This document shows, piece by piece, positions 1 through 36,369 of a DNA stretch of 64,000 bases. The position numbers were made by a program, and so were the translations under genes. The stretch's first letter is position 1; each line of letters begins with the position of its first letter. The notes under the pieces were generated by a model, which made no database searches, was not told where the DNA came from, and saw only the letters and a program-made list of their open reading frames with translations. The stretch spans positions 21,318 through 85,317 of the forward strand of contig JAAEEP010000006.1 of NCBI GenBank assembly GCA_013415695.1, read 5' to 3'. Source of the DNA: Methanomassiliicoccales archaeon (GTDB lineage Archaea; Thermoplasmatota; Thermoplasmata; Methanomassiliicoccales; JAAEEP01).

Positions 1-626
1 CCATAACCGTACTCCGTCGAGGTGGACGGATTCCAGACATCGAAACCTGTGGCTACAACCACCGCCCCGACATCGAACTCCAGCATGACATCGTTCATCT
101 CGTAGTCGATCGCTTCCCTCTTGCAGACCTTCTTGCAGACCCCGCACTTTCCTTCCTTGAGGTACCTGCAGTTCTCAGGGTCTATGATCGCCGCTCTGGG
201 AACAGCCTGCATGAAGGGCATATAGATGGCCCTCCTTGTCGACAAACCTTGCTCCCACTCATTGGGTATATTCTTCGTGGGGCACTTTTCCAAGCATTCT
301 CCACACCCCGTACATTTGTATTCATCAACGTATCTAGCCTTCTTCAGTACCCTGACATTGAATTTGCCCTTCTCACCTTCGAGGCCGACCAATTCAGAAC
401 AGGTCATCACGTTAATGTTGGGGTGTCCATAGCAATCAGCCATCTTCGGGGCGAGTATACAGATCGAGCAGTCATTGGTGGGGAAGGTCTTGTCCAGCTG
501 TGCCATTCGGCCACCTATGCTGGGCTCCTTTTCCACCAGGTGCACGATGACTCCCTTGTCCGCTAGGTCCAAGGAGGCCTGTATGCCCGCGATGCCGCCG
601 CCAATTACCAGCACCGTTTTTTCCAT
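1..626 (-). CDS. hdrA: HdrA-like FAD/Fe-S flavoprotein, 5' part only (gene continues beyond window start)
   Basis: Manual minus-strand translation from ATG 626-624 (GGAGG upstream) stays open to position 1. It reads MEKTVLVIGGGIAGIQASLDLADKG..MAQLDKTFPTNDCSICILAPK..CTGCGECLEKCP..CRYLKEGKCGVCKKVC. It is absent from the ORF track because there is no stop in the window. Paralogous to the N-halves of the two large hdrA genes. Confidence 0.9.
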   Translation of the reverse strand, partial: MEKTVLVIGGGIAGIQASLDLADKGVIVHLVEKEPSIGGRMAQLDKTFPTNDCSICILAPKMADCYGHPNINVMTCSELVGLEGEKGKFNVRVLKKARYVDEYKCTGCGECLEKCPTKNIPNEWEQGLSTRRAIYMPFMQAVPRAAIIDPENCRYLKEGKCGVCKKVCKREAIDYEMNDVMLEFDVGAVVVATGFDVWNPSTSTEYGY

Positions 627-693
627 TTTTCTTTCCTCCGTCCAGTAAAACCACAGTATTTTCTTTTGGAAAGTGGATTCTTTTCCACGTCAT

Positions 694-747
694 GGGTACC
701 TGGTGCCTGACCGCTTCAACGATCATTTGCACGCACTTAAGGTACCC
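694..747. repeat. 8-bp inverted repeat GGGTACCT/AGGTACCC (694-701 / 740-747) in the spacer between the Cys-repeat gene and hdrA
   Basis: Read directly from the sequence. The arms are perfect with a 38-nt spacer. It lies in the 137-nt gap inside an otherwise overlapping gene string. Confidence 0.5.
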
Positions 748-763
748 ATCCTGAAAATGGCTC

Positions 764-1135
764 CTACTCCCCTCCCTCGAAGATCCCTGAAAGATCTCCA
801 GATTTTTTCAATTCCACAGTCTTAACCTTGAATTTCTTCTTGTCCAGGACTTCCCTCTTGTATCTTTGACAATTGGGATAGGTGCATGGATCGCACTGCT
901 TCTCTGAACAAGCCAGTTCAACAAACATGTACCATTGTCGGTACCCATCCTTGCTTACAGGTGGACCCTCTACCTCAAACGCTTTGGTGGTCACTTTGGG
1001 CTTCTCTGTCAAACGAACGTAACGCTGACAGTCTGGATAAGTGCATGGGTTGCACTTGAAGTCCTTGCAGGAGAGTTCCACCATTAGATATCTCTTGTCC
1101 GGATTATCCATTTCTTCGGTCGCCGTCTCAATCAC
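764..1135 (-). CDS. Unrecognised small soluble protein with a tandem-duplicated C-x4-C-x2-C-x4-C-QRY motif (8 Cys)
   Basis: 123-aa ORF; start is GTG 1135 (1 nt after the hdrC/B fusion stop) or ATG 1111. The two repeats are LMVELSCKDFKCNPCTYPDCQRY and MFVELACSEKQCDPCTYPNCQRY. Same strand and tight spacing with the hdr genes. Confidence 0.6.
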   Translation of the reverse strand: MIETATEEMDNPDKRYLMVELSCKDFKCNPCTYPDCQRYVRLTEKPKVTTKAFEVEGPPVSKDGYRQWYMFVELACSEKQCDPCTYPNCQRYKREVLDKKKFKVKTVELKKSGDLSGIFEGGE

Positions 1136-1136
1136 C

Positions 1137-2282
1137 TCACTTCATATGTTCTGCCACGAAGTTGCTGAAATCCTTTACTTTAATATCAATCTTCTCTCTC
1201 TCAATGGGCATTTTTTCCATCGAAAGCAGACAGTTGTAATGTATCACGCACTTGGGACAAAAGGCCAACATCGTTTCCGCTCCTGTCTGCTTGGCCTCGA
1301 GCAGCCTCATCATCTGGAGCTGTCTTGAGGCTTCGTTGCAGTTGGTGAACGCATTGACCCCGCAGCACAAGGCTTTCTCCTGAGAGCTAGCCATCTCAAC
1401 AAACTCGACCCCCATGGCGTCGAGCAGATCCCTTGGCGTATCGTAGATGCCAGCGTGCCTCCCCAACCGACAGGAGTCGTGGTAGGTGACCGTTTCATCG
1501 GTCTCCTTGAACTCCAGCTTCCCCTCGTCTATCAGATTCATGAGGAACTCGGAGATATGCAGAATCTCAAAGTCCAAGTCTCCCAGGAACCCCTGATAGT
1601 CGATGTTGAAGGTTCTGAAACCTTCTGGGCATGAAAAGACCACTTTCTTTGCTCCGGTCTCCTTGATCATTTCCACGTTCTGCTCCATCAGGTCAATGAA
1701 GCCTACCTCATCCCCAGACCACAGCTGATCATGACCGCAACAGACCTCCTTATTGGACACTACCGGTTCGATTCCCGCGGCGTTCATTATCCTCACCACG
1801 TTCGCGGGGATCTCCTTCAGTTCGGGTGCCTTATCGTTGAAAAGGATACCGAGTTGGTAGGCGCAGCCCGTGAAGTAGTAGACATCGCCCTTATCACTCA
1901 CCTTTAGATCATCTGTGAGCCATGCGAGCCGGTTCTGCTTCTGTCCCATACCTGTGATCCTCTGCATGGTCTGGACCGCCCCTGCCTCCGAGCAAACGGG
2001 AACATTGCCCATTCCCACTGCCTCTACCCTCATCCTCTGGATGAAGCCGGAGAAATCCACCTCATAGGGGCACATGTCGTTGCAGATCTCACAGGTTATG
2101 CATGACCATATGTCCTTGTCACGCTTGATCTCCGATTCCAGACCCTCCTGGGCCTTGACCACTATCAATCTAGGGGCGAAATCGGAATTAATATTCGCTA
2201 CTGGACAAAGGCTGGTGCACTTACCGCACTCCACGCAGTCGAAGGCTCCAGTTTCTTCGATGAACTCCTCGATCTTGGTCAT
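1137..2282 (-). CDS. hdrD: HdrC/HdrB fusion (HdrD-like): N-terminal 2x[4Fe-4S] ferredoxin motifs plus two CCG domains
   Basis: 381 aa with CVECGKCTSLCP, CITCEICNDMCP, VCCGHD and ALCCGV (CCG motifs). ATG 2282 overlaps the mvhD stop (TAATG). Confidence 0.8.
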   Translation of the reverse strand: MTKIEEFIEETGAFDCVECGKCTSLCPVANINSDFAPRLIVVKAQEGLESEIKRDKDIWSCITCEICNDMCPYEVDFSGFIQRMRVEAVGMGNVPVCSEAGAVQTMQRITGMGQKQNRLAWLTDDLKVSDKGDVYYFTGCAYQLGILFNDKAPELKEIPANVVRIMNAAGIEPVVSNKEVCCGHDQLWSGDEVGFIDLMEQNVEMIKETGAKKVVFSCPEGFRTFNIDYQGFLGDLDFEILHISEFLMNLIDEGKLEFKETDETVTYHDSCRLGRHAGIYDTPRDLLDAMGVEFVEMASSQEKALCCGVNAFTNCNEASRQLQMMRLLEAKQTGAETMLAFCPKCVIHYNCLLSMEKMPIEREKIDIKVKDFSNFVAEHMK

Positions 2283-2698
2283 TAGATCACCTCCTTCAAG
2301 GGGCTTGGACCGAGTTCCTCCAACTCTTTGGTGAAATTATTCATGGTATCGGCGAATTTGGTACCTTCCCCCGCGGAAATCCACTCCAGCCTCAATCTCC
2401 TGCTGTCCACGCCAAGAACGTCAAGAAGCTCCTTGGTCATTTCAACTCTCACTTTTGCCTTCTCGTTGCCCGCGATGTAATGACAGTCACCTATGTGGCA
2501 CCCAGCCACCAGCACACCATCCGCCCCCAATTCAAAGGCTTTCAGAATGAACTGCGGTTCCAGTCTTCCACTGCACATCACCTTAATGATCCTAGCACTG
2601 GGAGGATACTGCAGTCTGCTGACCCCCGCAAGGTCCGCGCCGGCGTAGGAGCACCAATTGCAGCAGAAGGCCACGATCCTCGGTTCGAAGGCAGTCAA
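2282..2698 (-). CDS. mvhD: MvhD-like [2Fe-2S] subunit (methyl-viologen-reducing hydrogenase delta family)
   Basis: Reads TAFEPRIVAFCCNWCSYAGADLAG..MCSGR..GADGVLVAGCHIGDCHY. The probable TTG start at 2698 overlaps the hdrA stop (TTGA). The track ORF extension to 2806 lies inside hdrA and is rejected. Confidence 0.8.
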   Translation of the reverse strand: MTAFEPRIVAFCCNWCSYAGADLAGVSRLQYPPSARIIKVMCSGRLEPQFILKAFELGADGVLVAGCHIGDCHYIAGNEKAKVRVEMTKELLDVLGVDSRRLRLEWISAGEGTKFADTMNNFTKELEELGPSPLKEVI

Positions 2699-5600
2699 TA
2701 TCTCACCCCCTCTAGGCAGGACTCGACCATTGCAAGTATCTGCTCGTTGGTGAAATGTTTGCTGATGATAGCCCCGTTGCAGCATGTCACTGCACATGTA
2801 CCGCATCCTTTGCAGAGCGCGGGGTTGATGCTGGCCTTGAAAACTCCTGGCTCAACTTCCTGCACTGTGATGGCGGAGAACTCACAGACTGCCTCGCATC
2901 TAGCGCAGCCCCGACATTTCACCTCCTCCACATAGCTTATTGTGGCCTCACCCTCCACGGTGTCCTTGGATATCACCATTATTGATCTTGATGCGGCTCC
3001 CGCCGCCTGGGCGATGCTCTCGTCCGCGAGCTTAGGCCAATGGGCAAGGCCTGCAAGGAACACCCCCTCGGTGGCGAAGTCCACCGGCCTGAGCTTCATG
3101 TGAGCCTCCAGGAAAAAGCCATCCTTGCTAAGGGGAACTTTGAGCATCTTCGCCAATTCCTCGTTGTCGGGATTGGGCTTAATGCCTGTGGAGAGTACCA
3201 CCATATCCGGTTGTACCGACACCTTGTCCCCAAGAATCACATCCTGGGCGGAAATATCGATGATGCCTCCATCCACCGTCATGTCTGGCATGGTGTCGTC
3301 CGGCATCCTTATGAACTTCACGCCAAGCTCGCCTGCCTCCCTGTAGAGATCTTCCTTGAAGCCGTAGGTCCGGATGTCTTTGTAGAACATGTATACCTCG
3401 GCCTCAGGGTTGGCCTTCTTGATGCTGATCGCATTGTTCATGGCAGTCGAGCAGCAGATGCGGCTGCACATCGGATTATCCTTAGTGCGGGAGCCAACAC
3501 ACTGGATCATGACCACATTCTTGGCCTCGAGAGGTTTCTCGGCCATCATCTCTGCCAACTCCAGCTGTGTGACCACGCGGTCATCCTCACCGTAGAAGTA
3601 CTCGGTGGGCTGGTATTCCTGTGCTCCCGTGGTCAGTATTATCGTGCCTGCCTCAATCTCTTCCTCCGGAAGTGATATCCTAAAGTTGCCCACGAAACCC
3701 GAGATGTTCTCAATCTCAGCGTTCAGATGTACGGTAATCTTCTCGTTTCTAGAGATCTTAGCAATGAGCTCATCGGATACCTGCTTGCCGGTCTTTCCAT
3801 CCTTGTAAATGTGGACCCGCTTCAGATTGCCTCCAAGGCCATCCGATCTTTCGATGATGTCCACATCGAAGCCTTGGGCGGCGATCTCGAGGGCGGTAAT
3901 CATCCCAGAGAGGCCACCTCCAATGATGGCGGCTGAGTGATAGACTTCAAGTTTAGTCCTCTCCAAAGGTGAGATGAGCCTTGCCTTCGCCACCGCCATT
4001 CTCACAAGGTCCTTGGCTTTCTCCGTGGCTTTCTTTGGCTCGTGAGAGTGCACCCATGAGCATTGGTCGCGTATGTTGGCCATCTCGAAGAGATACGGGT
4101 TCAGGCCGGCTTCCCTGATGGTACTCTGGAATAGAGTCTCGTGAGTCCTCGGTGTGCATGATGCCACGATCACCCTGTTGAGGTTGTTCACATTGATCAT
4201 CCTCTTGATGATCTCCTGAGTATCCTGGGAGCAGGTGTACAGGTTCGCCTCGGCGTGAACGACATTTGGCAGGGTCTTTGCATACTCCACCACCTCCGGG
4301 ACGTTGATCACCCCGCCGATGTTGATGCCGCAGTGGCATACGAACACCCCTATTCTGGGCTCTTGAGTCCTTATGTCGACCTCATGAGGATACTCCTTTG
4401 GTTTGGCAAGTGTATTCCTCCTATCCGAAATGATTGCCGATGCCTTAACCGCTGCTCCCGAAGCCTCGGCCACCGTGGTCGGGATGTCCATGGGAGCAGC
4501 GAATGACCCGCTTACGAATATGCCCTCCTTGGATGTACTCAGCGGATCCCAAGCACCGGTTTCACAGAAGCCGTACTTGTTCAGCTCAATGCCGAAGACC
4601 TCCTGCAATTTCCCGGCGCTGTTCGAAGGGCAGAGACCTACCGAAAGGACTGCCATTTCGAACTCTTCCTCGTAAACATCGCCCCCTTCGCTGTACCTGA
4701 CGATAATGTTCTTGGTCTCAGGGTCTTCCTCGAGAGAGGCCACCCTAACTCCCCGGTGAATAATAACGCCACGTTCAAGCTCAGCGCGCTTGCGGTAGTC
4801 CTCGAACTCCTTTCCGACCGCTCTCACATCCATGAAGAAGATGTGCGGTTCCAGTCCCTTGGCGTGTTCCCCAGCGATGATGGCCTGCTTGAGCGCGTAC
4901 ATGCAGCAGACTGATGAGCAGTAGGTGTTTCCTACCTTCTCATCCCTGGACCCAACGCATTGCAAGAACGCTATCTTGGAGGGTATGTCACCATCTGAAG
5001 GTCTAAGCACATGCCCGAGATATGGGCCAGTGGCGCTGAGAATCCTTTCAAATTCTATGCTGCTCACCACATTCAGGTATTCTCCATAGCCATACTCCTT
5101 CTTCACCGAAGGCTCAAATTCCTCCGAACCAGGCGAAAGAATGATAGAACCCACCTCGACCGCTACGGACCTGTCCGCCAGCTCGAAATCGATGGCTCCG
5201 GTATTGCATGAGAGCTTGCAGGCACCGCACCCTATGCAGAGTTCGGGATCAATGCTGTATACCAGGGGAACCGCTTGAAGGTAAAGCACAGATATCGCTT
5301 TCCTCCTCATGAGCCCCTCGTTGAACTCATCTACGTACTCGACGGGACAGTTCTCTGCACAGGTTCCGCAGCCTATGCATTTCTCTGGGTTGACCTTGGG
5401 TACCCTCTGTTTGAGCGTCACCTTGAAATTTCCGGGCTCACCCTCGCATTTTTCAAGATCCGCATTGTTTATTATTGTGATGTTGTGATGCCTTCCCGCC
5501 TGCACGAGTTTTGGGGCGAGTATGCACATCGCGCAATCGTTGGTGGGGAAGGTCTTGTCCAGCTGGGCCATCACGCCCCCGATGCTTGGCTTCTTCTCCA

Positions 5601-5700
5601 CCAAGTAGACTCTGAAGCCTGAGTCGGCAAGATCCAGGGCTGACTGTATTCCAGAGATGCCGCCCCCGACGACCATTACTGCGCCGATCTTTTCGCCCAT
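2695..5700 (-). CDS. hdrA: Double-length HdrA-like flavoprotein (about 1001 aa)
   Basis: N-half: GGGISGIQSALDLA, LDKTFPTNDCAMCILAPK, CIGCGTCAENCP, CIGCGACKLSC, CVGSRD..YCSSVCCMYALK. Middle: VFVCHCGINIGG..ASCTPR..DQCSWVH. C-half: a second GGGLSG Rossmann motif, IQCVGSR..MCSRICC, and terminal CRGCARCEAVC plus CKGCGTCAVTC. ATG 5700 has SD GGAGGTG; the track start 5709 is GTG. Confidence 0.85.
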   Translation of the reverse strand: MGEKIGAVMVVGGGISGIQSALDLADSGFRVYLVEKKPSIGGVMAQLDKTFPTNDCAMCILAPKLVQAGRHHNITIINNADLEKCEGEPGNFKVTLKQRVPKVNPEKCIGCGTCAENCPVEYVDEFNEGLMRRKAISVLYLQAVPLVYSIDPELCIGCGACKLSCNTGAIDFELADRSVAVEVGSIILSPGSEEFEPSVKKEYGYGEYLNVVSSIEFERILSATGPYLGHVLRPSDGDIPSKIAFLQCVGSRDEKVGNTYCSSVCCMYALKQAIIAGEHAKGLEPHIFFMDVRAVGKEFEDYRKRAELERGVIIHRGVRVASLEEDPETKNIIVRYSEGGDVYEEEFEMAVLSVGLCPSNSAGKLQEVFGIELNKYGFCETGAWDPLSTSKEGIFVSGSFAAPMDIPTTVAEASGAAVKASAIISDRRNTLAKPKEYPHEVDIRTQEPRIGVFVCHCGINIGGVINVPEVVEYAKTLPNVVHAEANLYTCSQDTQEIIKRMINVNNLNRVIVASCTPRTHETLFQSTIREAGLNPYLFEMANIRDQCSWVHSHEPKKATEKAKDLVRMAVAKARLISPLERTKLEVYHSAAIIGGGLSGMITALEIAAQGFDVDIIERSDGLGGNLKRVHIYKDGKTGKQVSDELIAKISRNEKITVHLNAEIENISGFVGNFRISLPEEEIEAGTIILTTGAQEYQPTEYFYGEDDRVVTQLELAEMMAEKPLEAKNVVMIQCVGSRTKDNPMCSRICCSTAMNNAISIKKANPEAEVYMFYKDIRTYGFKEDLYREAGELGVKFIRMPDDTMPDMTVDGGIIDISAQDVILGDKVSVQPDMVVLSTGIKPNPDNEELAKMLKVPLSKDGFFLEAHMKLRPVDFATEGVFLAGLAHWPKLADESIAQAAGAASRSIMVISKDTVEGEATISYVEEVKCRGCARCEAVCEFSAITVQEVEPGVFKASINPALCKGCGTCAVTCCNGAIISKHFTNEQILAMVESCLEGVRY
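3488..3600. repeat. Near-identical block shared with 7265-7377 (hdrA paralogs)
   Basis: By manual alignment, 89 nt are perfectly identical (3488-3576 = 7265-7353), and 113 nt match with 2 mismatches. Flanking sequence is much more diverged. Confidence 0.85.
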
Positions 5701-5701
5701 C

Positions 5702-6475
5702 TCAGGCACCTCCCCTCAACAGAGCCTTGTATTTCGGTGTAGGGCCCTCAATGGAGTCCATGCCTATGAGATTCCTCGACCTCAGAACGACTACTTGCTT
5801 CAGTATTTCTTGAGGGGGAGCACCTATCTCTTCCGCCAATTCCTTTACTGAGAGGGGATTGGTCTTAGTCAATTGGAGGATAAGATTTCTTTCATAGTCC
5901 TCCTTTACCACCACTTCGGTCAGCTCATCCAGTTCATCAACGTTGATGAGGTCGCCGTAGACATTCCCTCTCTGAGTAAGATCCAATTCCTTGCCGCTGA
6001 GAAGCCTCAGCCTGTACTCTCGGGCAGTCCCAATAGCGGCGTCGAGCTTCACTTGAAGCTCCTCATTGTCCTTGACCGGGGATGGTCCAAGCTTCTTCAG
6101 GTACTTGACGAAATCGTCGACAACCTCGGCGAACCTCTCGCCTTCCGAGGCTGAGACAGGTTCTAACCTCAGCCTCCCTGGGTCAAGACCAACGAATTCC
6201 ATCAACTGCCATGCCATCTCCACCCTCTTCTGCGTGTATATGTGAGCGGAGAGATTGCAGCAGTCCTCGATGTGACAACCCCCGATCAACACCCCATCAG
6301 CTCCCTCGCTGAACACTTCGAGGATTATGTGAGCGGTAATCCTGGTGCTGCAAAGCACCCTGATAGAGCGTATATTGGTTGAATACTGGAAATGACTCAC
6401 GCCTGCCAGGTCAGCACCGGCATAGGCGCAGAAGTTGCATAGGAAACCAATGATCTTTGGTTCAAAGTTGCTCAC
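5702..6475 (-). CDS. mvhD: MvhD-like domain with a C-terminal extension of about 120 aa resembling a winged helix-turn-helix
   Basis: GTG 6475 overlaps the hdrA stop (GTGA). Reads SNFEPKIIGFLCNFCAYAGADLAG..GADGVLIGGCHIEDC, then ..NLILQLTKTNPLSVKELAEEIGAPPQEILKQVVVLRSRNLIGMDSIEG. The track extension to 6694 is rejected. Confidence 0.75.
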   Translation of the reverse strand: MSNFEPKIIGFLCNFCAYAGADLAGVSHFQYSTNIRSIRVLCSTRITAHIILEVFSEGADGVLIGGCHIEDCCNLSAHIYTQKRVEMAWQLMEFVGLDPGRLRLEPVSASEGERFAEVVDDFVKYLKKLGPSPVKDNEELQVKLDAAIGTAREYRLRLLSGKELDLTQRGNVYGDLINVDELDELTEVVVKEDYERNLILQLTKTNPLSVKELAEEIGAPPQEILKQVVVLRSRNLIGMDSIEGPTPKYKALLRGGA

Positions 6476-9400
6476 TCCATCACCTCCTTGAGGGCCACAC
6501 AGGCCTCGGCCAGGAGCTGAGAATCTGTGTAATGCATGAGGACGATTGCCCCCACTGGGCAGGCTGCTCCGCAGGAGCCGCACCCCTTGCATAGGGCAGG
6601 GTTCACAGACGCTTTCAGAGCACCTGTGGAGTCTTCTTTCATATCTACCGCACTGAAAGCACAGACCTCCTGGCAAATGCCGCAAGCCCTGCACTTCAAT
6701 TCATCGATCACTGGAACCGGGGCCATCCCCTCTAACTCGCTCTTCGCGATTATGGTCATGGCCTTCGAAGCAACGGCCGCGCCCTGGGCGATGCTCTCGT
6801 TGGCAAGCTTCGGCCAATGGGCAAGACCTGCCATGTAAATACCTTCAGTGGAAAATTCCACAGGTCTTAACTTCATATGAGCCTCCTGGAAGAAGCCATC
6901 TTTGCTAAGGTGAATCTTTAGCATCCTTGCCAGCTTGCTCGAATCTTCCCTGGGTCTAATACCAGTGGAAAGGACCAAGAGGTCCGCATTGACAACCACC
7001 TCATCTCCGAGAATGAAGTCATTGGCGCTGACCAATAATCTACCATCTTCCATCTTGACCTCAGGCATTTCGGCATCAGGCATCCTTATGAACTTCACAC
7101 CCAACTCGCAAGCTTCCCGATAGAGATCCTCCCTGAGGCCGTAGGTCCTTATGTCCTTACAGAAAACAAAGACATTTGAACCTGGGTTGCTCCTCATTAC
7201 ATTAATTGCATTGTTCATAGCTGTCGTGCAGCAGATACAGCTGCACATCGGATTGTCCTCGGTCCGGGAGCCAACACACTGGATCATGACCACATTCTTG
7301 GCCTCGAGAGGTTTCTCGGCCATCATCTCTGCCAACTCCAGCTGTGTGACCACACGGTCATCCTCGCCGTAGAAGTATTCCTGTGGTTGATACTCCTCAG
7401 CGCCTGTGGCCACAATGATGGCCCCAGCCTTTATCGGTCCACCATTGGTATTGAGCACGAAGTTGCCCACGAAACCCGCTACTTCCTCTATCTCTGTCTC
7501 AAGATGGACGGTCACCCTATCATTTGACATGACTCTGGAAATCATCTCATCCGCAGCTTCCCTTCCGGTTTTGCCGTCTTGCTTAAAAAGCACTCTATTC
7601 AAATGACCTCCAAGCCTGTCTGATCTCTCGATCAGATCGACCTCGTAGCCATTACTGGCGATCTCCAGGGCGGATGTCATTCCGGCGAGACCGCCTCCTA
7701 TGACCGTGACGGAATGGCCAATTGGGAATGTGGGTGTTGTCAAAGGCTCAACCAGTCTTACCTTGGCCACTGCCATCTTAACCAGATCATTTGCCTTAGC
7801 GGTGGCCTTTCTCTTCTCATTCATGTGAACCCACGAGCATTGATCGCGTATGTTTGCCATCTCCAGGAGATACTGGTTCAGGCCAGCTTCCCTGATGCAA
7901 TTCTGGAATAGCAGTTCGTGTGTCCTTGGAGAACACGAAGCGATCACTATCCTGTTCAATCTGTGTTCTTCGATCTTCTCCTTCATCAATTCAAGTGCGT
8001 CCTGTGAGCACGCATAAAGGAAGTCGGAAACGCTGATCACATCGGGCAGTTCCTTCGTGGCCTGTACAACCTTCTTCACATTGACCACACCACCGATGTT
8101 TCTACCACAGTGACATACGAATACCCCTATTCTGGGCTTCTCACCCTGCACATCCTTTTCTGAGGGGTAGTCCTTTCGAAGGATGGAGACTTTCTCCCGT
8201 TCGGTGACGGTCGAAAGCGCTTTAGAAGCTGTTCCAGACGCCTCAGCGACAGAGGCTGGTATGTCCTTTGGTGCTGAGAAGGTCCCACACACGTAGATAC
8301 CATCCCTGGAAGTGGATAAAGGATCCCAGACGCTTGTGGAGCAGAATCCGTCCTTGTTGAGCTCGACGCCGAAAACCTTGGAGATTTCCCCGGCCGATGT
8401 GGTAGGGCAGACACCCACTGACAGAACCACAAGATCGAAGGTCTCCTCGACCAGTCTTTCACCATCGCTGTAGTGAACAATAAGGTTCTCGTCGTCATCC
8501 TCATCAATGGAGGCGACTCGAGTCCCTCGATGGATCACAACTCCTTCTTCCTGCTCCGCCCGGATACGATAGTCCTCGAACTCCTTGCCAACCGTCCTTA
8601 CGTCCATGAAGAATATGTGCGGCTCCACCTTATTGAGGCGGTTCTTGGCGATCATGGCTGCCTTGAGTGCATGCATGCAACAGACAGATGAACAGTAGGT
8701 GTTTCCTACCTTATCATCTCTGGAACCCACACATTGGAGGAATGCAATTCTATTTGGCGCCTTCTTGTCAGATGGCCTTAGTAATTGGCCTTCATAGGGT
8801 CCAGCAGTGCTGAGGATCCTTTCAAATTCTCTGCTCGACACAACATTCTTGAAGAACTCATAGCCGTACTCCGTCTTCATTGAGGCATTGCATTCATCAA
8901 AACCAGGACAGAGTATCACTGAGTTGACTTCGAACTCGATCTCCTCGTCCTCCATATCAAAATTGATGGCGTCGTACTCACAGACCTTTGCGCATATTCC
9001 GCACTTCCCCTGTGTCAGATATAGACAGGTCTCTGGATCTATGACCGCGGTCTTCGGAACCGCTTGTGGAAATGGAATATATATCGCCTTTCTCGTAGAT
9101 AGTCCAAGTTCCCAGTAATCTAGGACTCCTTTCACAGGACACTTCTCAATGCAGTCCCCACGACCCATGCATTTTTCCTGATCGATGTATGTGGCCTTCC
9201 TGAGAACCTTCACCTTGAAGTCTCCCTTGTCGCCCTCAAGCCCAATCACCTTGGAATGGGTTAGAACATTGATGTTTGGATGGCCATAGCAGTCAACCAT
9301 TTTCGGAGCCAGTATGCATATCGAGTAATCATTAGTTGGGAAAGTCTTGTCCAATTGGGCCATCTTCCCACCAATGCTTGGATCTTCTTCTACCAGATAC

Positions 9401-9495
9401 ACTTTGACACCGACCTCGGCTAGGTCTAATGCCGCTTGAATTCCTGCTATTCCTCCACCAACAACAAGTACTGAGTTAGGCTCGTTGTCGGTCAA
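6472..9495 (-). CDS. hdrA: Double-length HdrA-like flavoprotein (about 1007 aa) with substitutions in conserved Cys motifs of the N-half
   Basis: Same architecture as 2695-5700. The probable TTG start at 9495 follows SD GGGAGGA and aligns with the paralog N-termini (LTDNEPNSVLVVGGGIAGIQ); the track start 9552 is also TTG. It carries TNDYSICIL and CMGRGDCIEKC instead of TNDC..C and CxGCGxCxxxC. Confidence 0.85.
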   Translation of the reverse strand: MTDNEPNSVLVVGGGIAGIQAALDLAEVGVKVYLVEEDPSIGGKMAQLDKTFPTNDYSICILAPKMVDCYGHPNINVLTHSKVIGLEGDKGDFKVKVLRKATYIDQEKCMGRGDCIEKCPVKGVLDYWELGLSTRKAIYIPFPQAVPKTAVIDPETCLYLTQGKCGICAKVCEYDAINFDMEDEEIEFEVNSVILCPGFDECNASMKTEYGYEFFKNVVSSREFERILSTAGPYEGQLLRPSDKKAPNRIAFLQCVGSRDDKVGNTYCSSVCCMHALKAAMIAKNRLNKVEPHIFFMDVRTVGKEFEDYRIRAEQEEGVVIHRGTRVASIDEDDDENLIVHYSDGERLVEETFDLVVLSVGVCPTTSAGEISKVFGVELNKDGFCSTSVWDPLSTSRDGIYVCGTFSAPKDIPASVAEASGTASKALSTVTEREKVSILRKDYPSEKDVQGEKPRIGVFVCHCGRNIGGVVNVKKVVQATKELPDVISVSDFLYACSQDALELMKEKIEEHRLNRIVIASCSPRTHELLFQNCIREAGLNQYLLEMANIRDQCSWVHMNEKRKATAKANDLVKMAVAKVRLVEPLTTPTFPIGHSVTVIGGGLAGMTSALEIASNGYEVDLIERSDRLGGHLNRVLFKQDGKTGREAADEMISRVMSNDRVTVHLETEIEEVAGFVGNFVLNTNGGPIKAGAIIVATGAEEYQPQEYFYGEDDRVVTQLELAEMMAEKPLEAKNVVMIQCVGSRTEDNPMCSCICCTTAMNNAINVMRSNPGSNVFVFCKDIRTYGLREDLYREACELGVKFIRMPDAEMPEVKMEDGRLLVSANDFILGDEVVVNADLLVLSTGIRPREDSSKLARMLKIHLSKDGFFQEAHMKLRPVEFSTEGIYMAGLAHWPKLANESIAQGAAVASKAMTIIAKSELEGMAPVPVIDELKCRACGICQEVCAFSAVDMKEDSTGALKASVNPALCKGCGSCGAACPVGAIVLMHYTDSQLLAEACVALKEVME
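7265..7377. repeat. Partner of the 3488-3600 near-identical block
   Basis: See 3488-3600. Confidence 0.85.
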
Positions 9496-12752: not shown

Positions 12753-14495
12753 ATGGCACAAAGCAAGGAAGGGACGATAGCGATCTATATTTGCTCTGAA
12801 CAGGACAAAATGTGTGATTTCATTGATCTTGAAAGCATCAGGGATATGCTCCTCCGTGAGAAGGACGTGGTCGATGTTCTCATACATCACCAACTCTGTG
12901 CCGTGGATGAGATCATCAAGATCGTGGAGAGATATCGAGAGCACAAGCCTGAGAGAGTCCTGTTGGGTTGCTGCCAGACCGCAACAAGTGAACGATTAAG
13001 GGAGTCATTGATAGAAGCTGGCCTGAACAAGTACCTCTATGAGAGGGTGAACCTCAAGGAGCTTGTCATGCTAGTCCATATAGACAGGGAGAGGTCGACT
13101 AGAAGGGCAAAATCCCTGCTGCTGAGCGGTTTGGCCCGCTTGCGGCGGGCCAAGCCGTTGGATGATATTGTCATGCCCATACGGGACAGCGTCCTCATCA
13201 TTGGAGGCGGCATAGCCGGAATGGCATCCGCGAAGGCCATTGCTGACGAGGGTTTCAAGGTCTATCTGGTGGAGAAGGAAAAACGACTTGGAGGGAGAGC
13301 GTATCAACTATCTACCACCTTCCCAACCCATGAATGCGGAATATGCTGCATGAGGTACTGCAAGGAGTGTGTTCTTACTCCAAAGATACCAGAAATCGCA
13401 ACACATCCTAATATCGAGGTTATGCTGAATAGTAATGTCACGCATATATCTGGGCGCTTTGGAGAGAGGCATATCGAGGTTGAATCGAATGGTGACATGC
13501 AAGAATTCGATGTTGGGATCATCATAGTGGCGACTGGCTCCAAAACCTTCGACCCCATTTCACTCCCAGAGTACAATTACGATAGGTTGGAGAATGTGGT
13601 GACCTCCATGGAGTTCTGCGACATCATGGCCAAAGCAAGCACCGCAGATTTCAGAAGGCCTTCCGACAACAAGATTCCCAAGGTTGTGAACTTCGTACTC
13701 TGCGTAGGATCCCGCGACTGCCATCGAGCCAACAACTACTGCTCCATAGTATGCTGCACATACGCGATCGGTTCGGCCAAGGAGTTTAAATTGGCCCACC
13801 CGGAGACAGAAGTCTACATACACTTCATCGATCTCAGAGGCCCATACAGGGGGTTCGAAACACTTCTTCTCGAGGCCAGGGAAGCAGGCGTGATATTCAT
13901 CAGGGGACGTGTGGCAGAGATAATCGATGATGACGGCGAGATACTGCTCAGGGTGGAGGATGCAGACGCTGGAGAGCTCTTGAACATCCATAGCGATCTC
14001 GTGATCCTCGCCGTGGGTCAGGAGCCAAGCGTTGGTTCGGAGGAGCTGGGGAAGATGCTCCGACTGCAGGTTGACATTGACGGATTCTTGAAGGACTTCA
14101 ACCCGATGTATCCTGAGGAGATTAGGAAGGGGATCTATGTGGTGGGTTGTGCCCAGGGTCCCAAGGGAATAAGATACTCCATCGACGACGCTAAGAGGAC
14201 AGCATTCGAAGTCATTAACCTCCTGAACAAGGGTGAGATATCAATTGATAATCTTGTCGCTGAGGTCAATGAGCATACCTGCCGTGGGTGCGGTCGATGC
14301 GTGGAGAACTGTCCCTTCGAAGCCGTTGAGCTGGTGGAAAAGGGTGACGAGAAGATCGCCCAAGTCGATGAAATGGTCTGCGAAGGATGTGGTATCTGCT
14401 CGGTGGTCTGCTGCAACAAATCGATAACCATGAGACATTATACGAGAGACAGCCTGCTTTCCCAGGTTCGCTCGGTGATCAAGGAGGTCAGCTAA
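12753..14495 (+). CDS. hdrA: Short HdrA-like flavoprotein (580 aa) with a degenerate CHCG-type N-domain and an extra Cys insertion
   Basis: The N-domain-like segment has YICSEQ instead of VCHCG. Then IIGGGIAGMASAKAIADEG, LSTTFPTHECGICCMRYCKECVLTPK, CVGSRD..YCSIVCCTYA, and C-terminal CRGCGRCVENCP plus CEGCGICSVVC. SD GGAGG lies 9 nt upstream of the ATG. Confidence 0.8.
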   Translation: MAQSKEGTIAIYICSEQDKMCDFIDLESIRDMLLREKDVVDVLIHHQLCAVDEIIKIVERYREHKPERVLLGCCQTATSERLRESLIEAGLNKYLYERVNLKELVMLVHIDRERSTRRAKSLLLSGLARLRRAKPLDDIVMPIRDSVLIIGGGIAGMASAKAIADEGFKVYLVEKEKRLGGRAYQLSTTFPTHECGICCMRYCKECVLTPKIPEIATHPNIEVMLNSNVTHISGRFGERHIEVESNGDMQEFDVGIIIVATGSKTFDPISLPEYNYDRLENVVTSMEFCDIMAKASTADFRRPSDNKIPKVVNFVLCVGSRDCHRANNYCSIVCCTYAIGSAKEFKLAHPETEVYIHFIDLRGPYRGFETLLLEAREAGVIFIRGRVAEIIDDDGEILLRVEDADAGELLNIHSDLVILAVGQEPSVGSEELGKMLRLQVDIDGFLKDFNPMYPEEIRKGIYVVGCAQGPKGIRYSIDDAKRTAFEVINLLNKGEISIDNLVAEVNEHTCRGCGRCVENCPFEAVELVEKGDEKIAQVDEMVCEGCGICSVVCCNKSITMRHYTRDSLLSQVRSVIKEVS

Positions 14496-16108
14496 TGGAG
14501 GGGGAGGCTTTCGATCCGGTCGTGGTCACATTCGCCTGCAACTGGTGCGGTTATCCCGCAGCGAGATTGACCGGAGTTCAGAACATCGATTATCCATCGG
14601 GAATCAAGATCGTTCGGGTGATGTGTACTGGGAGGGTCGATCCGGCCATGATAATGAAGGCCTTCGAGTACGGCGCGGACGGTGTGGCCCTCGTCGGTTG
14701 CCGCATGGACGAGTGCCACTTCCTTGAGGGAAACAAGAAGGCCAAAGAGAGAGTGGAAGCGATAAAGAAGATCCTCGATTACATCGGTCTTGATGGGGGT
14801 CGTCTGGAAGCTGAGTGGTTGGCCGCAGCCGAGACAAAGAAATTCGCAAAGCTCACTAACGACCTCGTCTCGAAGATAAAGGAACTCGGTCCAAACCCCA
14901 TTCCGCGAATCGGTGAGATGGGTGAGGAGGAGGCTGTCTTCGACAAGGACGCGATCGATGATATTATCTCGAGCACCAGCGCCCACGACTGCGTGGAGTG
15001 CGGTAAGTGCACTAGCGTATGCCCGGTGGCCAGGTTCGATGAGGAGTTCGCTCCCAGGAGAATAGTGCTTCGAGCCCTTGAGGGAGTGTCCGACAAACTT
15101 GCCGAAGACAAGGACATATGGTCCTGCATCACCTGCGAGATGTGCAATGCTATGTGCCCCTACGAGGTCGATTACTCCGAGTTCATCAGGAGAATGAGAT
15201 CGGAGGCCGTGCTGTTAGGGGGAAGGCATGATTCGATAATCAAGGAATGCCCCCAAGGTGGGATGCTGCAGAGCATGATGAGGATCATGGCATATACCGA
15301 GAAGCAGAATAGGCTCTCCTGGATACCTGAGGATGTGAGGATCCAGACAACGGGAGATGTCTTCTACTTCACAGGTTGTCTTCCCCACATGGACTTGGTG
15401 TTCAGAGACCGGGAATTGGACCTTACCCAGACCGCAGTGAGCGCTATCAAGCTTCTGAACCACGCTGGTATCGAGCCCGTGGTGAGCAACAACGAGGTCT
15501 GCTGTGGTCACGATCTCAATTGGGTAGGTGATGAGGATAGTTTCGAGCTGCTGATGAACAAGAACATCGAGGCCATTAAGGAGAGTGGGGCAAAGACGGT
15601 GGTCTTCACCTGCCCCGAGGGACTTAGAACCTTCGATATTGATTACAGGGACATACTTGGGGATCTGGATTTCGAAGTGATGCACATCTCGGAGTTCCTT
15701 CTGGAGCTTGCGGATGAAGGCGATATCGACCTCTCCTCGGACAACAGTGGAACAGTGACCCTTCACGAGTCCTGTAGGCTGGGCAGGCATCTGGGCATCT
15801 ACGATCCGCCGCGAGAGCTACTGGAAAGAGCGGGGATCGAGATCAAGGAAATGGAGAACGTAAGGGACAAGGCCATCTGTTGTGGTGTCAGCTCTTTCGT
15901 GGCATGCAGCGAATCGGCTCAAAAAATGCAGCTCGAGAGAATAATGGAGGCCAAGAGGACTGAAGCAGAGACCCTTCTGACAGTCTGCCCCAAGTGCAGG
16001 ATACACCTGAGCTGCGCGATCTCAAAGGAGATCCCTTGTGACCGCGAGTTGGTGGACATTCCTATCGAGGATTATACTGTGTACCTTGCTAGGCACTTGA
16101 ACCTATGA
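14495..16108 (+). CDS. MvhD-HdrC-HdrB triple fusion (537 aa)
   Basis: ATG 14495 overlaps the upstream stop (TAATG) and follows AAGGAGG. MvhD part: VVVTFACNWCGYPAARLTG..GCRMDECHF. HdrC part: CVECGKCTSVCP and CITCEMCNAMCP. HdrB CCG part: VCCGHD and AICCGV. The track extension from 14387 is rejected. Confidence 0.85.
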   Translation: MEGEAFDPVVVTFACNWCGYPAARLTGVQNIDYPSGIKIVRVMCTGRVDPAMIMKAFEYGADGVALVGCRMDECHFLEGNKKAKERVEAIKKILDYIGLDGGRLEAEWLAAAETKKFAKLTNDLVSKIKELGPNPIPRIGEMGEEEAVFDKDAIDDIISSTSAHDCVECGKCTSVCPVARFDEEFAPRRIVLRALEGVSDKLAEDKDIWSCITCEMCNAMCPYEVDYSEFIRRMRSEAVLLGGRHDSIIKECPQGGMLQSMMRIMAYTEKQNRLSWIPEDVRIQTTGDVFYFTGCLPHMDLVFRDRELDLTQTAVSAIKLLNHAGIEPVVSNNEVCCGHDLNWVGDEDSFELLMNKNIEAIKESGAKTVVFTCPEGLRTFDIDYRDILGDLDFEVMHISEFLLELADEGDIDLSSDNSGTVTLHESCRLGRHLGIYDPPRELLERAGIEIKEMENVRDKAICCGVSSFVACSESAQKMQLERIMEAKRTEAETLLTVCPKCRIHLSCAISKEIPCDRELVDIPIEDYTVYLARHLNL

Positions 16109-34767: not shown

Positions 34768-36120
34768 CTACAGCCTGTTCATGGCCACTTCCGCAGCGGT
34801 GTGTGCTGGGTCTCTTACCATGCTGGTCGGCGGGCAGTAGGCGTTCTCGAACTGAATGACGAACTCCTCGATGGTCACTCCCTTCTCGAGGGCTGCTGTG
34901 ATCCAGTTGACACGCCCGTTCATCTGTGGATCCTTGCCAACCATCTGGGCTCCCAGTACTTTATGGCTTCCCTTCTCCACCAGGATTTTCACGGTCACGG
35001 GCTCGTGACCTGGATAATACCTAGCACAGGAAAGGCCAGTGTACTTGCCCTCCACCAAATCGATTCCGTAATAGGCGGCGAGTCCAAGAGAGATGCCTGT
35101 ACCGGCACACTGCAGGTCCCCGATCACACTTACCCAAGGGCTCGTGACCCCTGGATATATCATGCTCCCACCGGCTGCGTTCGTGCCTGCCACGATACCC
35201 TGTCTGACCGCGCTTGAGCCAAGTTGGCTCATTGTTGGTCCGGGGACTATGCAACTCTCTACCTGGATGACATCACCTGCTAGGTATATGTCAGGTACAA
35301 GCCGGCCTTTCTTGTATGGCTGCATGGTGGGGCTAACTCTTATCGCACCCAGCTCACCAACATCCAGTCCGATCTTGCTTGGAAGCTCCAGATTAGCGCG
35401 AACTCCCGTGGCCATGATGATCACCTCAGCGGGGTACTCCTTTTCCCCAGCGATCACGGATACTGCCTTGCCATTCTCCCCCTTGATGGAACCTATTGGA
35501 GTACCCATGACGAATTTGATGCCCTCTCCCTCGAGGTAATCCTGGACCATGTCTGCCATGTCCTTGTCGAATATCCTGGGGATGACCTGAGGGAACATCT
35601 CGATCACGGTAACATCGAGACCGACCTTCTTCAAAGCCAAAGCCATCTCGAGACCGATGACACCAGCACCTGCTATGACCGCTGACTTGGCTCCAACCAT
35701 AGAGGCTTGTATCTTCTTGCCATCGTTGATGGTCCTGACCGTGAAGACCCCATCAAGGTCCTTGCCCTCGATCGGCGGAACCCAGACATATCCACCTGTG
35801 GCTAGGATGAGGGAGTCATACTCCCACAACTTGCCGTCTGCGGTGGTGATCTTCTTATTGTCCGCGTCCACATCAGTGACTTTTGTCTTGGTGTACACGT
35901 TGATGTTCCTCTCCTCCTTATAGAACTCAGGATCGTGCATCACCATGTAATCCCAGTCTATGAGGCCCTCAAGGACCCATGGTATCACGCATGGAGAGTA
36001 AGCAATGTACTCGTCATCCGTGAAAACATTGATCTCGGCGTCCTTGTCCGTCCTTCGCGCAGCGGATGCGGCTGGCATTCCAGCGGCCCCGGTACCGATA
36101 ACGATTATCTTGCGAGCCAT
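34768..36120 (-). CDS. Pyridine nucleotide-disulfide oxidoreductase, CoA-disulfide reductase/NADH oxidase (NSR) family
   Basis: MARKIIVIGTGAAG, active-site YSPCVIPW and a second GAGVIGLE motif. ATG 36120 chosen over the track start. Confidence 0.8.
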   Translation of the reverse strand: MARKIIVIGTGAAGMPAASAARRTDKDAEINVFTDDEYIAYSPCVIPWVLEGLIDWDYMVMHDPEFYKEERNINVYTKTKVTDVDADNKKITTADGKLWEYDSLILATGGYVWVPPIEGKDLDGVFTVRTINDGKKIQASMVGAKSAVIAGAGVIGLEMALALKKVGLDVTVIEMFPQVIPRIFDKDMADMVQDYLEGEGIKFVMGTPIGSIKGENGKAVSVIAGEKEYPAEVIIMATGVRANLELPSKIGLDVGELGAIRVSPTMQPYKKGRLVPDIYLAGDVIQVESCIVPGPTMSQLGSSAVRQGIVAGTNAAGGSMIYPGVTSPWVSVIGDLQCAGTGISLGLAAYYGIDLVEGKYTGLSCARYYPGHEPVTVKILVEKGSHKVLGAQMVGKDPQMNGRVNWITAALEKGVTIEEFVIQFENAYCPPTSMVRDPAHTAAEVAMNRL

Positions 36121-36369
36121 AAGATCTACCTTTCCTTTGGAAGTATAGAATAGCATATTAATAAATTTGTGAGTTCGGGTCAAGGATACTCCGGTTATGC
36201 CCAAGGTTCATTGAAATTGGATTGAGAATGATATCGAGCCTTTCGATATCCGTAGGATGCACTGAAAATCAATTGATTGTCCTGTTCGAACCAGCATATC
36301 GCGTCACTGGCATCATGAGAAGATATATAGCCTTCCCGCGATGTTCTGAGCCAAGAACAAGAGGATTAG

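Follow-up and report, generated by a model that had tools for sequence, protein, structure and literature searches.

Gene content of the cluster

The DNA analysed here, a stretch of 64,000 nucleotides from contig JAAEEP010000006.1 of a Methanomassiliicoccales archaeon (hereafter the window), opens with a minus-strand cluster of genes of the heterodisulfide reductase (Hdr) and Mvh type. An earlier reading of the letters alone (the sequence-only reading) had described this cluster as hdrA > mvhD with a tail > hdrA > mvhD > hdrC/B fusion > an open reading frame (ORF) with eight cysteines > an hdrA cut by the window edge. The ORF listing and the translations recover all seven genes in this order and at the positions given then (Table 1, where the hdrA genes are called hdrA_a, hdrA_b and hdrA_c). 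The motifs quoted from their products (GGGIxGIQ, LDKTFPTND, CVGSRD..YCSSVCC, CHCG and a C-terminal 2x CxxCxxCxxxC) are also in place. The junctions had all been read correctly: in gene order they are GTGA, TGA-G-ATG (a 1-nt gap), TTGA, TAATG, TGA-G-GTG (a 1-nt gap) and a 137-nt spacer. They suggest translational coupling, and the overlapping or 1-nt junctions were counted in favour of co-expression.

Pfam and NCBIfam profile scans of the cluster products assign them to the Hdr/Mvh families with very low E-values, which, together with the overlapping or 1-nt junctions, bears out the view that these are tightly coupled genes of this type. The HdrA proteins match the NCBIfam HdrA2 model with E = 1e-288 to 1e-294 and the solved HdrA of the MvhAGD-HdrABC complex (PDB 5ODC) with E = 1.9e-202. 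The closest full-length homologues of the 1001-aa HdrA that have a named source are proteins from metagenome-assembled genomes of Methanomassiliicoccales, and full-length homologues run into the thousands. The plain mvhD product matches FlpD (Pfam, E = 3.6e-56) and the VhuD model (NCBIfam, 2.8e-42), and the mvhD-tail product matches FlpD (Pfam, E = 1.5e-41). The hdrC/B fusion carries two CxxCxxCxxxC motifs (residues 16-26 and 61-71), a complete five-cysteine CCG motif (C271, C306, C307, C342, C345) and a CCG domain with E = 2e-23 in Pfam; its best NCBIfam model, TfrB, scores below the cutoff. Its matches in the PDB include HdrC (1e-11) and the HdrD-like iron-sulfur reductase 9OJN (1.4e-33).

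To place these genes in context, 87 related loci were gathered by exact look-ups and a metagenome scan and uniformly annotated. They bear directly on the truncated hdrA_c. Its 208 residues are 93% identical to a 439-aa A6-like HdrA (A3N) of locus L012 and 95% identical to that of L033, and in every relative a separate A12-like HdrA of 611-620 aa is encoded right after this A6-like gene. Since the A6-like hdrA always precedes an A12-like gene in the relatives, hdrA_c can be assigned as the first half of a split pair, that is, as an A6-like HdrA of ~439 aa and the unfused version of the type II pair discussed below. HdrAs of this type have the thioredoxin-reductase (TrxR)/flavin adenine dinucleotide (FAD) domain and the inserted ferredoxin domain, keep Cys197 and lack the N-terminal and C-terminal domains. 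The third hdrA of the array is thus half of a split pair and neither canonical nor double-length.

Table 1. Features of the cluster and of a second Hdr module in the window
Feature	Position	Strand	Description
hdrA_a	6472-9495	-	1007 aa; paralogue group A1, type II HdrA by sequence; TTG start with GGGAGG ahead
mvhD-tail	5702-6475	-	257 aa; MvhD, helical linker and predicted ArsR/SmtB-like winged helix
hdrA_b	2695-5700	-	1001 aa; paralogue group A2, type II HdrA by sequence
mvhD	2282-2698	-	138 aa; plain MvhD/FlpD subunit
hdrC/B fusion (HdrD-like)	1137-2282	-	381 aa
8-Cys ORF	764-1135	-	123 aa
spacer	627-763	-	137 nt; hairpin and GGAGG ribosome-binding site ahead of hdrA_c
hdrA_c	1-626	-	paralogue group A3N; first 208 codons, cut by the window edge
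divergent HdrA-like gene	12753-14495	+	580 aa
MvhD-HdrC-HdrB triple fusion	14495-16108	+	537 aa

The electron donor and the Mvh/Hdr operon of related loci

A tblastn search of the 64-kb window with the proteins of a relative detected no MvhG or MvhA homologue and matched only three MvhD domains, and Pfam scans of 30 further window ORFs found no hydrogenase, Fdh or Frh. Both results agree with the earlier observation that no mvhA/mvhG, fdhAB or frh-type partner occurs in these 64 kb, from which it had been concluded that the donor is unknown. That conclusion is not supported by the comparison with related loci. The metagenome contig L033 is collinear with the last 4.2 kb of the cluster up to position 1 of the window (89.1% nucleotide identity, protein identities of 92-95%). 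Beyond the edge it continues with the rest of the A6-like gene > the A12-like gene > mvhD-tail > a type II hdrA (1006 aa) > mvhD > mvhG > mvhA. The terminal genes, which end with the small and the large subunit of a [NiFe] hydrogenase, match FlpD, Oxidored_q6 and NiFeSe_Hases, and the best NCBIfam models for the last two are VhuG and VhuA. The same ending recurs wherever it can be followed: mvhG closes all 13 loci that extend past the last hdrA/mvhD (L003, L004, L028, L033, L035, L037, L038, L042, L044, L049, L051, L054 and L076), and mvhA is present too where the contig allows. Locus L031, from another lineage, reads type II hdrA > mvhD-tail > type II hdrA > mvhD > hdrC > hdrB > mvhG > mvhA > hycI, an order that ties the first four gene types of the window straight to the hydrogenase. 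Since the relatives continue into mvhG/mvhA, the absence of donor genes can be read as an effect of the window edge; it is best explained, judging from synteny, by the window ending ~7 kb short of mvhG, and the donor is almost certainly H2. The synteny check that had been proposed with the sequence-only reading did find the same gene string in close relatives, but with a hydrogenase downstream, counter to an assembly without donor.

Methanomassiliicoccales contribute significantly to methane production in guts, wetlands and soils, and their energy metabolism is built on Mvh/Hdr. It seems likely that the region covers the upstream two thirds of the Methanomassiliicoccales Mvh/Hdr operon, which would encode a soluble, H2-dependent, flavin-based electron-bifurcating heterodisulfide reductase. 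The full cluster would begin with type II hdrA > mvhD-tail > type II hdrA > mvhD > hdrCB > 8-Cys ORF > A6-like hdrA and go on with A12-like hdrA > mvhD-tail > type II hdrA > mvhD > mvhG > mvhA, its last ~9 kb lying past the window. By a mechanism of the 5ODC type, H2 would be oxidised by MvhAG and its electrons would be split. One branch would lead from the [4Fe-4S] cluster of the TrxR domain through HdrC/B to a disulfide, presumably that of coenzyme M and coenzyme B (CoM-S-S-CoB), and a second from a composite N-domain cluster, via the inserted ferredoxin domain, to ferredoxin. This follows the paths of canonical HdrA, in which the TrxR-domain cluster leads to HdrBC, and the N-domain cluster, to which the partner adds its Cys197 as the last ligand, leads with the inserted ferredoxin domain to ferredoxin (Chadwick 2022, PMC9012536). 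The extra HdrA-MvhD units would probably be additional or alternative modules around one hydrogenase and HdrCB/HdrBC modules.

The resemblance to the MvhAGD-HdrABC complex of Methanothermococcus thermolithotrophicus (5ODC) extends to most of its parts: the FAD/TrxR domain with Glu356/Lys409, the cysteines of the TrxR [4Fe-4S] cluster, the N-terminal Fe-S domain, the inserted and C-terminal ferredoxin domains, MvhD, the HdrC-type and CCG-type domains and, in the relatives, the Vhu/Mvh [NiFe] hydrogenase. The differences lie in the assembly. Instead of a homodimer of 650-aa HdrA there is a 1000-aa chain or a split A6/A12 pair, with one of the two symmetric paths; moreover, HdrC and HdrB are fused, several HdrA-MvhD units stand in a row and half of the MvhDs bear a winged-helix tail.

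Several observations weigh against this interpretation. The mvhG and mvhA genes lie outside the window, and it is synteny, with relatives that share at most 89% nucleotide identity, that places them in this genome. Neither mcr nor methyltransferase genes were found in the window, so that CoM-S-S-CoB as the acceptor is assumed from the known metabolism of the order, and hdr/mvh genes also occur in relatives that are not methanogens (bioRxiv 10.1101/2020.03.09.984617). A single hydrogenase and a single HdrCB do not agree in number with the four HdrA units and the four MvhD proteins. It has been argued that bifurcation may take place at both flavins of type II HdrA (Lyu 2025, PMC12054007). The other CCG motif of the hdrC/B fusion retains four of its five cysteines (C140, C181, C182, C218). 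Finally, distant lineages (41-50% identity; for example L059 and L108) can have A6-like > A12-like > mvhD-tail > type II hdrA without a nearby hydrogenase.

Such distant modules could be taken to favor an alternative, in which the cluster encodes a donor-less, hydrogenase-independent Hdr-like assembly that receives its electrons from F420H2, NAD(P)H or formate, either directly or via unlinked genes. The lack of mvhA/G, fdh and frh in the 64 kb would fit this scenario, and the HdrA2B2C2 of Methanosarcina works with F420H2 and no additional subunit (PMC5296606). Nevertheless, every close relative that can be followed, including the collinear L033, ends in mvhD-mvhG-mvhA, and no domain of the GltD/NfnB or FrhB/FdhB type was found in the cluster products scanned with Pfam and NCBIfam. 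Though not unreasonable as such, the idea is at odds with this lineage, and we regard it as very improbable here.

The H2-dependent reading also agrees with what has been published on the order. The HdrA of Methanomassiliicoccales was described as longer than usual, with two FAD sites and beside mvhDGA (Borrel 2014, PMC4153887), and an H2-dependent Mvh/Hdr model is accepted for the order (PMC4153887, PMC7824343, PMC6147122, PMC10804542). As to the suggested uncharacterised assembly, its architecture is not new: the long HdrA has been on record since 2014 (PMC4153887) and the fusions were classified in 2022 and 2025 (PMC9012536, PMC12054007). By its sequences, the system is a variant of the known Mvh/Hdr, with HdrAs of the catalogued type II class. 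The cultured Methanomassiliicoccus luminyensis, Candidatus M. alvus and Candidatus M. intestinalis likewise have a long two-FAD HdrA beside mvhDGA (PMC4153887), for which H2-dependent bifurcation to heterodisulfide and ferredoxin is the generally accepted role. In contrast to these strains as they are described, for which one hdrA is listed beside mvhDGA (PMC4153887), the hydrogenase would here come after three to four HdrA units, two mvhD-tail genes, the HdrCB fusion and the 8-Cys gene. In the literature searched, no description was found for this order of the array of three to four HdrAs, the winged-helix MvhD, the 8-Cys gene or a residue-level logic of one path. The main outcome is the correction of a window-edge artefact and the placement of the cluster in a known system, in which the multi-HdrA array is still of interest.

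Domain structure of the fused HdrA proteins

The residues of the two double-length HdrAs were compared with those of the solved M. thermolithotrophicus HdrA by reconstructing the 5ODC numbering from alignments and tabulating all cysteine ligands as well as Glu356 and Lys409. Three blocks of hdrA_b align to 5ODC HdrA: residues 8-372 to 146-511 (the FAD/TrxR domain and the inserted ferredoxin domain), residues 446-596 to 2-152 (the N-terminal Fe-S domain) and residues 818-995 to 473-649 (the end of a second TrxR domain together with the C-terminal ferredoxin domain). Pfam finds two Rossmann/Pyr_redox_2 regions in each large HdrA, at ~residues 8-430 and 590-900. The large proteins are indeed, as had been read from their motifs, two HdrA-like flavin modules joined via the domain that is N-terminal in canonical HdrA. 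A relationship of the C-halves to NfnB/GltD was rejected, as they align to HdrA throughout and neither GltD nor NfnB is among the Pfam/NCBIfam hits listed. Among the findings that the sequence-only reading had named as speaking against it were an NfnB/GltD-like C-half and an architecture already characterised; the former does not apply, but the architecture is already catalogued and part of the accepted H2-dependent Mvh/Hdr model.

The distribution of the functional residues over the two halves is highly asymmetric. The N-halves lack the N-terminal Fe-S and C-terminal ferredoxin domains and keep Cys197, the cysteines of the inserted ferredoxin domain, the four cysteines of the TrxR-domain cluster, Glu356 and Lys409, with the exception of Cys194 and Cys249 in hdrA_a. 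The C-halves carry the cysteines of the N-terminal domain, the eight C-terminal ferredoxin cysteines and those of the TrxR-domain cluster, and lack Cys197 and the entire inserted ferredoxin domain. This pattern is general. Cys197, Glu356 and Lys409 are invariant in the N-halves of type II HdrAs (136/136), neither Cys197 nor the inserted ferredoxin domain occurs in the C-half of any of those sampled, and Cys11 and Cys13 of the N-domain are kept in every C-half sampled; the eight C-terminal ferredoxin cysteines are kept in all C-halves of a set of 12 proteins. The Glu/Lys pair of the C-half is more variable and is retained in 85 of the 136. Ala and Asn replace it in the C-halves of hdrA_a and hdrA_b, the N-halves of which both keep Glu/Lys. 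For comparison, Lyu 2025 reports E/K in both halves of 75% of type II HdrAs (PMC12054007), whereas both C-halves of the window lack it. hdrA_b has the full set of inserted-ferredoxin cysteines. In hdrA_a, residue 57 is a Tyr in the place of Cys194 (TNDYSIC) and residue ~119 an Arg in the place of Cys249, which leaves the first cluster of the inserted ferredoxin domain short of a ligand; the pattern is shared with the L012 ortholog and occurs in only 4 of the 136 type II HdrAs.

In terms of classification, both window copies have two TrxR/FAD domains, an A6-like N-half and an A12-like C-half, and their Glu/Lys pair is confined to the N-half; a pair in both flavin sites is frequent in the class without defining it. 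By these traits, the double-length proteins belong to the catalogued type II HdrAs, a class described as the fusion of A6 and A12 (Lyu 2025, PMC12054007). Such fusions have been treated as HdrA3/4, for which a heterodimer within one peptide was proposed (Chadwick 2022, PMC9012536). In the HdrA3/4 of that work the N-terminal Fe-S domain is placed in the N-terminal HdrA and Cys197 in the C-terminal one; the order in the window proteins, as in the A6+A12 description of Lyu, is the opposite.

Type II HdrA may accordingly be interpreted in relation to the canonical dimer. One path is complete in the fused protein, with the Glu/Lys of the N-half FAD, Cys197 and the inserted ferredoxin domain on one side and, in the C-half, the N-domain along with the C-terminal ferredoxin domain. 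Of the five elements that make up the mirror path, four are deleted, and the remaining one, the flavin signature of the C-half, is dispensable. Since one full path is kept and the mirror path is mostly deleted, the ~1000-aa HdrA would be the single-chain counterpart of the HdrA dimer, a pseudo-dimer with a single path. This would differ from the proposal of two bifurcating flavins in PMC12054007. A sequence search of the PDB returned no structure of a type II HdrA, the literature searched gave no purified enzyme of this type, and the class is reported to be without biochemistry (Lyu 2025, PMC12054007). A fused HdrA of this kind would be a natural single-path bifurcating core and as such useful for the dissection of the mechanism. 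To our knowledge, all mechanistic understanding of Hdr stems from the symmetric dimer of 650-aa HdrA.

Comparable flavoproteins exist in other systems. In the QmoABC complex of sulfate reducers, as in the split pair, a short flavoprotein related to HdrA comes before a longer one. Unlike QmoABC, the cluster has no membrane subunit such as QmoC, and neither QmoA nor QmoB is among the NCBIfam models hit by the split pair. The same succession of a short and a longer HdrA homologue is seen in the tandem HdrA5/6 and HdrA12/13 of anaerobic methanotrophic archaea (ANME; PMC9012536). The type II HdrAs of ANME and Methanosarcinales (A3/A4; PMC9012536, PMC12054007) share with the window proteins the A6+A12 fusion and the complementary Cys197 and N-terminal domain, and their clusters also combine extra HdrA copies with MvhD and HdrD-like proteins. 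The proposed donor there is F420-linked, through FdhB and a homologue of molybdopterin oxidoreductases, whereas here it would be an Mvh-type hydrogenase. Finally, the MetFV-HdrABC-MvhD systems of Moorella thermoacetica and Sporomusa ovata as well as BamE of class II benzoyl-CoA reductase also display two TrxR/FAD domains and partners of the MvhD and HdrBC types (PMC5861303, PMC9430772). They differ in that the Moorella protein has a GltD insertion and that of S. ovata lacks the inserted ferredoxin domain, in that their partners are MetFV or Bam, and in that their donors are NADH.

The MvhD-tail proteins, the HdrA array and the remaining genes

The mvhD-tail product belongs to a large family of ~257-aa proteins. 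Its residues 1-135 correspond to the MvhD [2Fe-2S] domain, in which Cys13, Cys16, Cys42, Cys67 and Cys72 are invariant in the family alignment. An AlphaFold model based on a 50-sequence alignment (predicted local distance difference test, pLDDT, 85; predicted template modelling score, pTM, 0.85) superposes with its first 135 residues on MvhD of 5ODC chain D (Foldseek, TM 0.87). The last ~75 residues resemble CzrA, NolR, SmtB and HlyU (Foldseek, prob 1.0, E ~5e-3, TM 0.55-0.6), with three helices and a beta-hairpin in residues 210-251, and the sequence hits of the tail remain below threshold (HTH_20, 17 bits for a cutoff of 27; an ArsR model, 18 bits for a cutoff of 55). As modelled, the protein is an MvhD followed by an ArsR-like winged helix. 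A scan of contigs with MvhD-tail returned one close relative, L013 on a 3.8-kb contig, and otherwise distant bacterial MvhD genes.

Since the tail is predicted to fold like ArsR/SmtB repressors, gives weak HTH_20 and ArsR-family hits and is found in proteins some of which JGI labels as hydrogenase delta subunit/predicted transcriptional regulator, the MvhD-tail could be thought of mainly as a redox-sensing transcription regulator, in which a [2Fe-2S] sensor would control a putative ArsR-type DNA-binding domain, and not as an enzyme subunit. Yet, the Foldseek match is weak, the gene is joined to the flanking hdrA genes by the GTGA overlap and a 1-nt gap, and its position is strict across the 87 loci, as is typical of stoichiometric subunits. 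We consider a mainly regulatory role to be rather improbable.

The gene grammar of the 87 loci is strict. In 58/58 cases the gene before a fused mvhD-tail encodes an HdrA that has a C-terminal ferredoxin domain, and where there is a downstream gene it is another hdrA in 55 of 56 cases. The gene after a plain mvhD is mostly hdrCB, hdrC or mvhG, and in 11 cases a type II hdrA. The number of [mvhD-tail > type II hdrA] units per array varies from one to three between lineages (L047, L049, L053, L054, L076). Nine loci, among them L042 (16948-17334), L038, L044, L049, L051, L054, L070 and L076, encode a homologue of the tail as a separate, free-standing protein between mvhD and mvhG, which means that the tail is not confined to HdrA-HdrA junctions. 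These proteins have 129-190 aa and are 29-32% identical to the window tail, and their start and stop codons overlap the neighbouring genes; by sequence and position, they are a split form of MvhD-tail beside the hydrogenase. Repeats of HdrA and MvhD and the winged-helix MvhD thus recur, in a strict grammar, in many uncultured lineages.

The HdrA copies group as orthologs by their position in the array. Pairwise identities between genomes are 66-78% for A1 (78% between hdrA_a and the L012 gene of the same position), 59-85% for A2, 67-86% for the split A3 pair and 68-87% for A4, and A3 is 43-50% identical to the other three groups. Such ortholog groups by position and the low identity of A3 to the others point to old, maintained paralogues instead of recent duplicates; on these identities, the additional HdrA-MvhD units are paralogues of ancient origin that have kept their places in the array.

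This arrangement raises the possibility that the HdrA units form a supercomplex wired via MvhD-tail, in which the output of one flavin would feed the next, in a tandem of bifurcation or confurcation steps and not as independent isoenzymes. The placement of mvhD-tail between an HdrA with a C-terminal ferredoxin domain and another hdrA would fit such wiring, as would the tendency of plain mvhD, despite the 11 cases before type II hdrA, to stand before hdrCB, hdrC or mvhG. The conserved order of the array with its position-specific ortholog groups, the junctions suggestive of translational coupling, the variable number of units and the compact MvhD-tail model also speak for it, and there are proposals of tandem bifurcation in other systems with a double HdrA (PMC12054007; for a discussion of BamE, PMC9430772). 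Nevertheless, gene order is indirect evidence of physical contact, the free-standing tails show that this domain is not specific to HdrA-HdrA contacts, and the second flavin site lacks the bifurcation residues in both window copies. On balance, a multi-HdrA supercomplex seems unlikely. If it did exist, it would extend the known ways of building bifurcating complexes. In its most explicit form, which we hold to be equally doubtful, the MvhD-tails would link successive single-path pseudo-dimers, the electrons of one hydrogenase would pass at least two bifurcation/confurcation steps before reaching HdrCB and ferredoxin, and the 8-Cys protein would be a further, metal-binding subunit.

The 8-Cys protein consists of two ELSCx4CxPCTYPxCQR[FY] repeats with Lys-rich tails and matches no family in Pfam or NCBIfam. 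Its relatives are few (23 among 1.84 billion representative proteins), and all eight cysteines are invariant. Nucleotide differences fall on third codon positions in 24 of 29 cases against L033 and in 40 of 53 against L012, a bias which indicates a real gene, and the ORF lies between hdrCB (or mvhD-hdrCB) and the A6-like hdrA in 18/18 loci. By this conservation, it is a genuine, rare and conserved member of the cluster. The best homologue (P0279) is on a 622-bp contig and has no gene context, and the structure prediction of the protein is poor (pLDDT 41.5, pTM 0.16). The order Methanomassiliicoccales is known to decode UAG as pyrrolysine; the stop codon of the 8-Cys ORF is TAG (764-766, minus strand), and read-through would add nine codons up to a TAA. 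The spacer that follows, the only real one of the operon, contains a long hairpin (minimum free energy -41.2 kcal/mol, z = -2.69) resting on a perfect 10-bp inverted repeat (ATGGGTACCT / AGGTACCCAT). It could be a region of processing, attenuation or internal promotion ahead of the split hdrA pair.

A second Hdr module, placed divergently at 12753-16108 on the plus strand, adds a fourth HdrA-like gene and a third MvhD to the Hdr genes of the window; both lie beyond the coordinates of the sequence-only reading of the cluster. The 580-aa HdrA-like protein is ~33% identical to canonical HdrA and lacks the inserted ferredoxin domain; Glu356 is replaced by Cys and Lys409 by Gly, and the cysteines of the N-terminal domain are partly lost. 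Its gene is coupled via a TAATG overlap to that of the 537-aa MvhD-HdrC-HdrB triple fusion, and in L003, L004 and L037, too, this pair is found next to the main cluster.

The rest of the window is made up of archaeal housekeeping genes, among them those of FtsZ, proteasome alpha, SBDS, exosome subunits, Cbf5, an aminoacyl-tRNA synthetase, Amt, GlnA, an ABC transporter and a ClC channel as well as the L3-L4...SecY ribosomal operon; scans of the window for tRNA genes and Rfam families gave no match. At 34768-36204 on the minus strand, unlinked to the hdr cluster, lies the gene of a 478-aa class I pyridine-nucleotide disulfide oxidoreductase with a dimerisation domain, possibly an NAD(P)H-linked thiol/disulfide enzyme.

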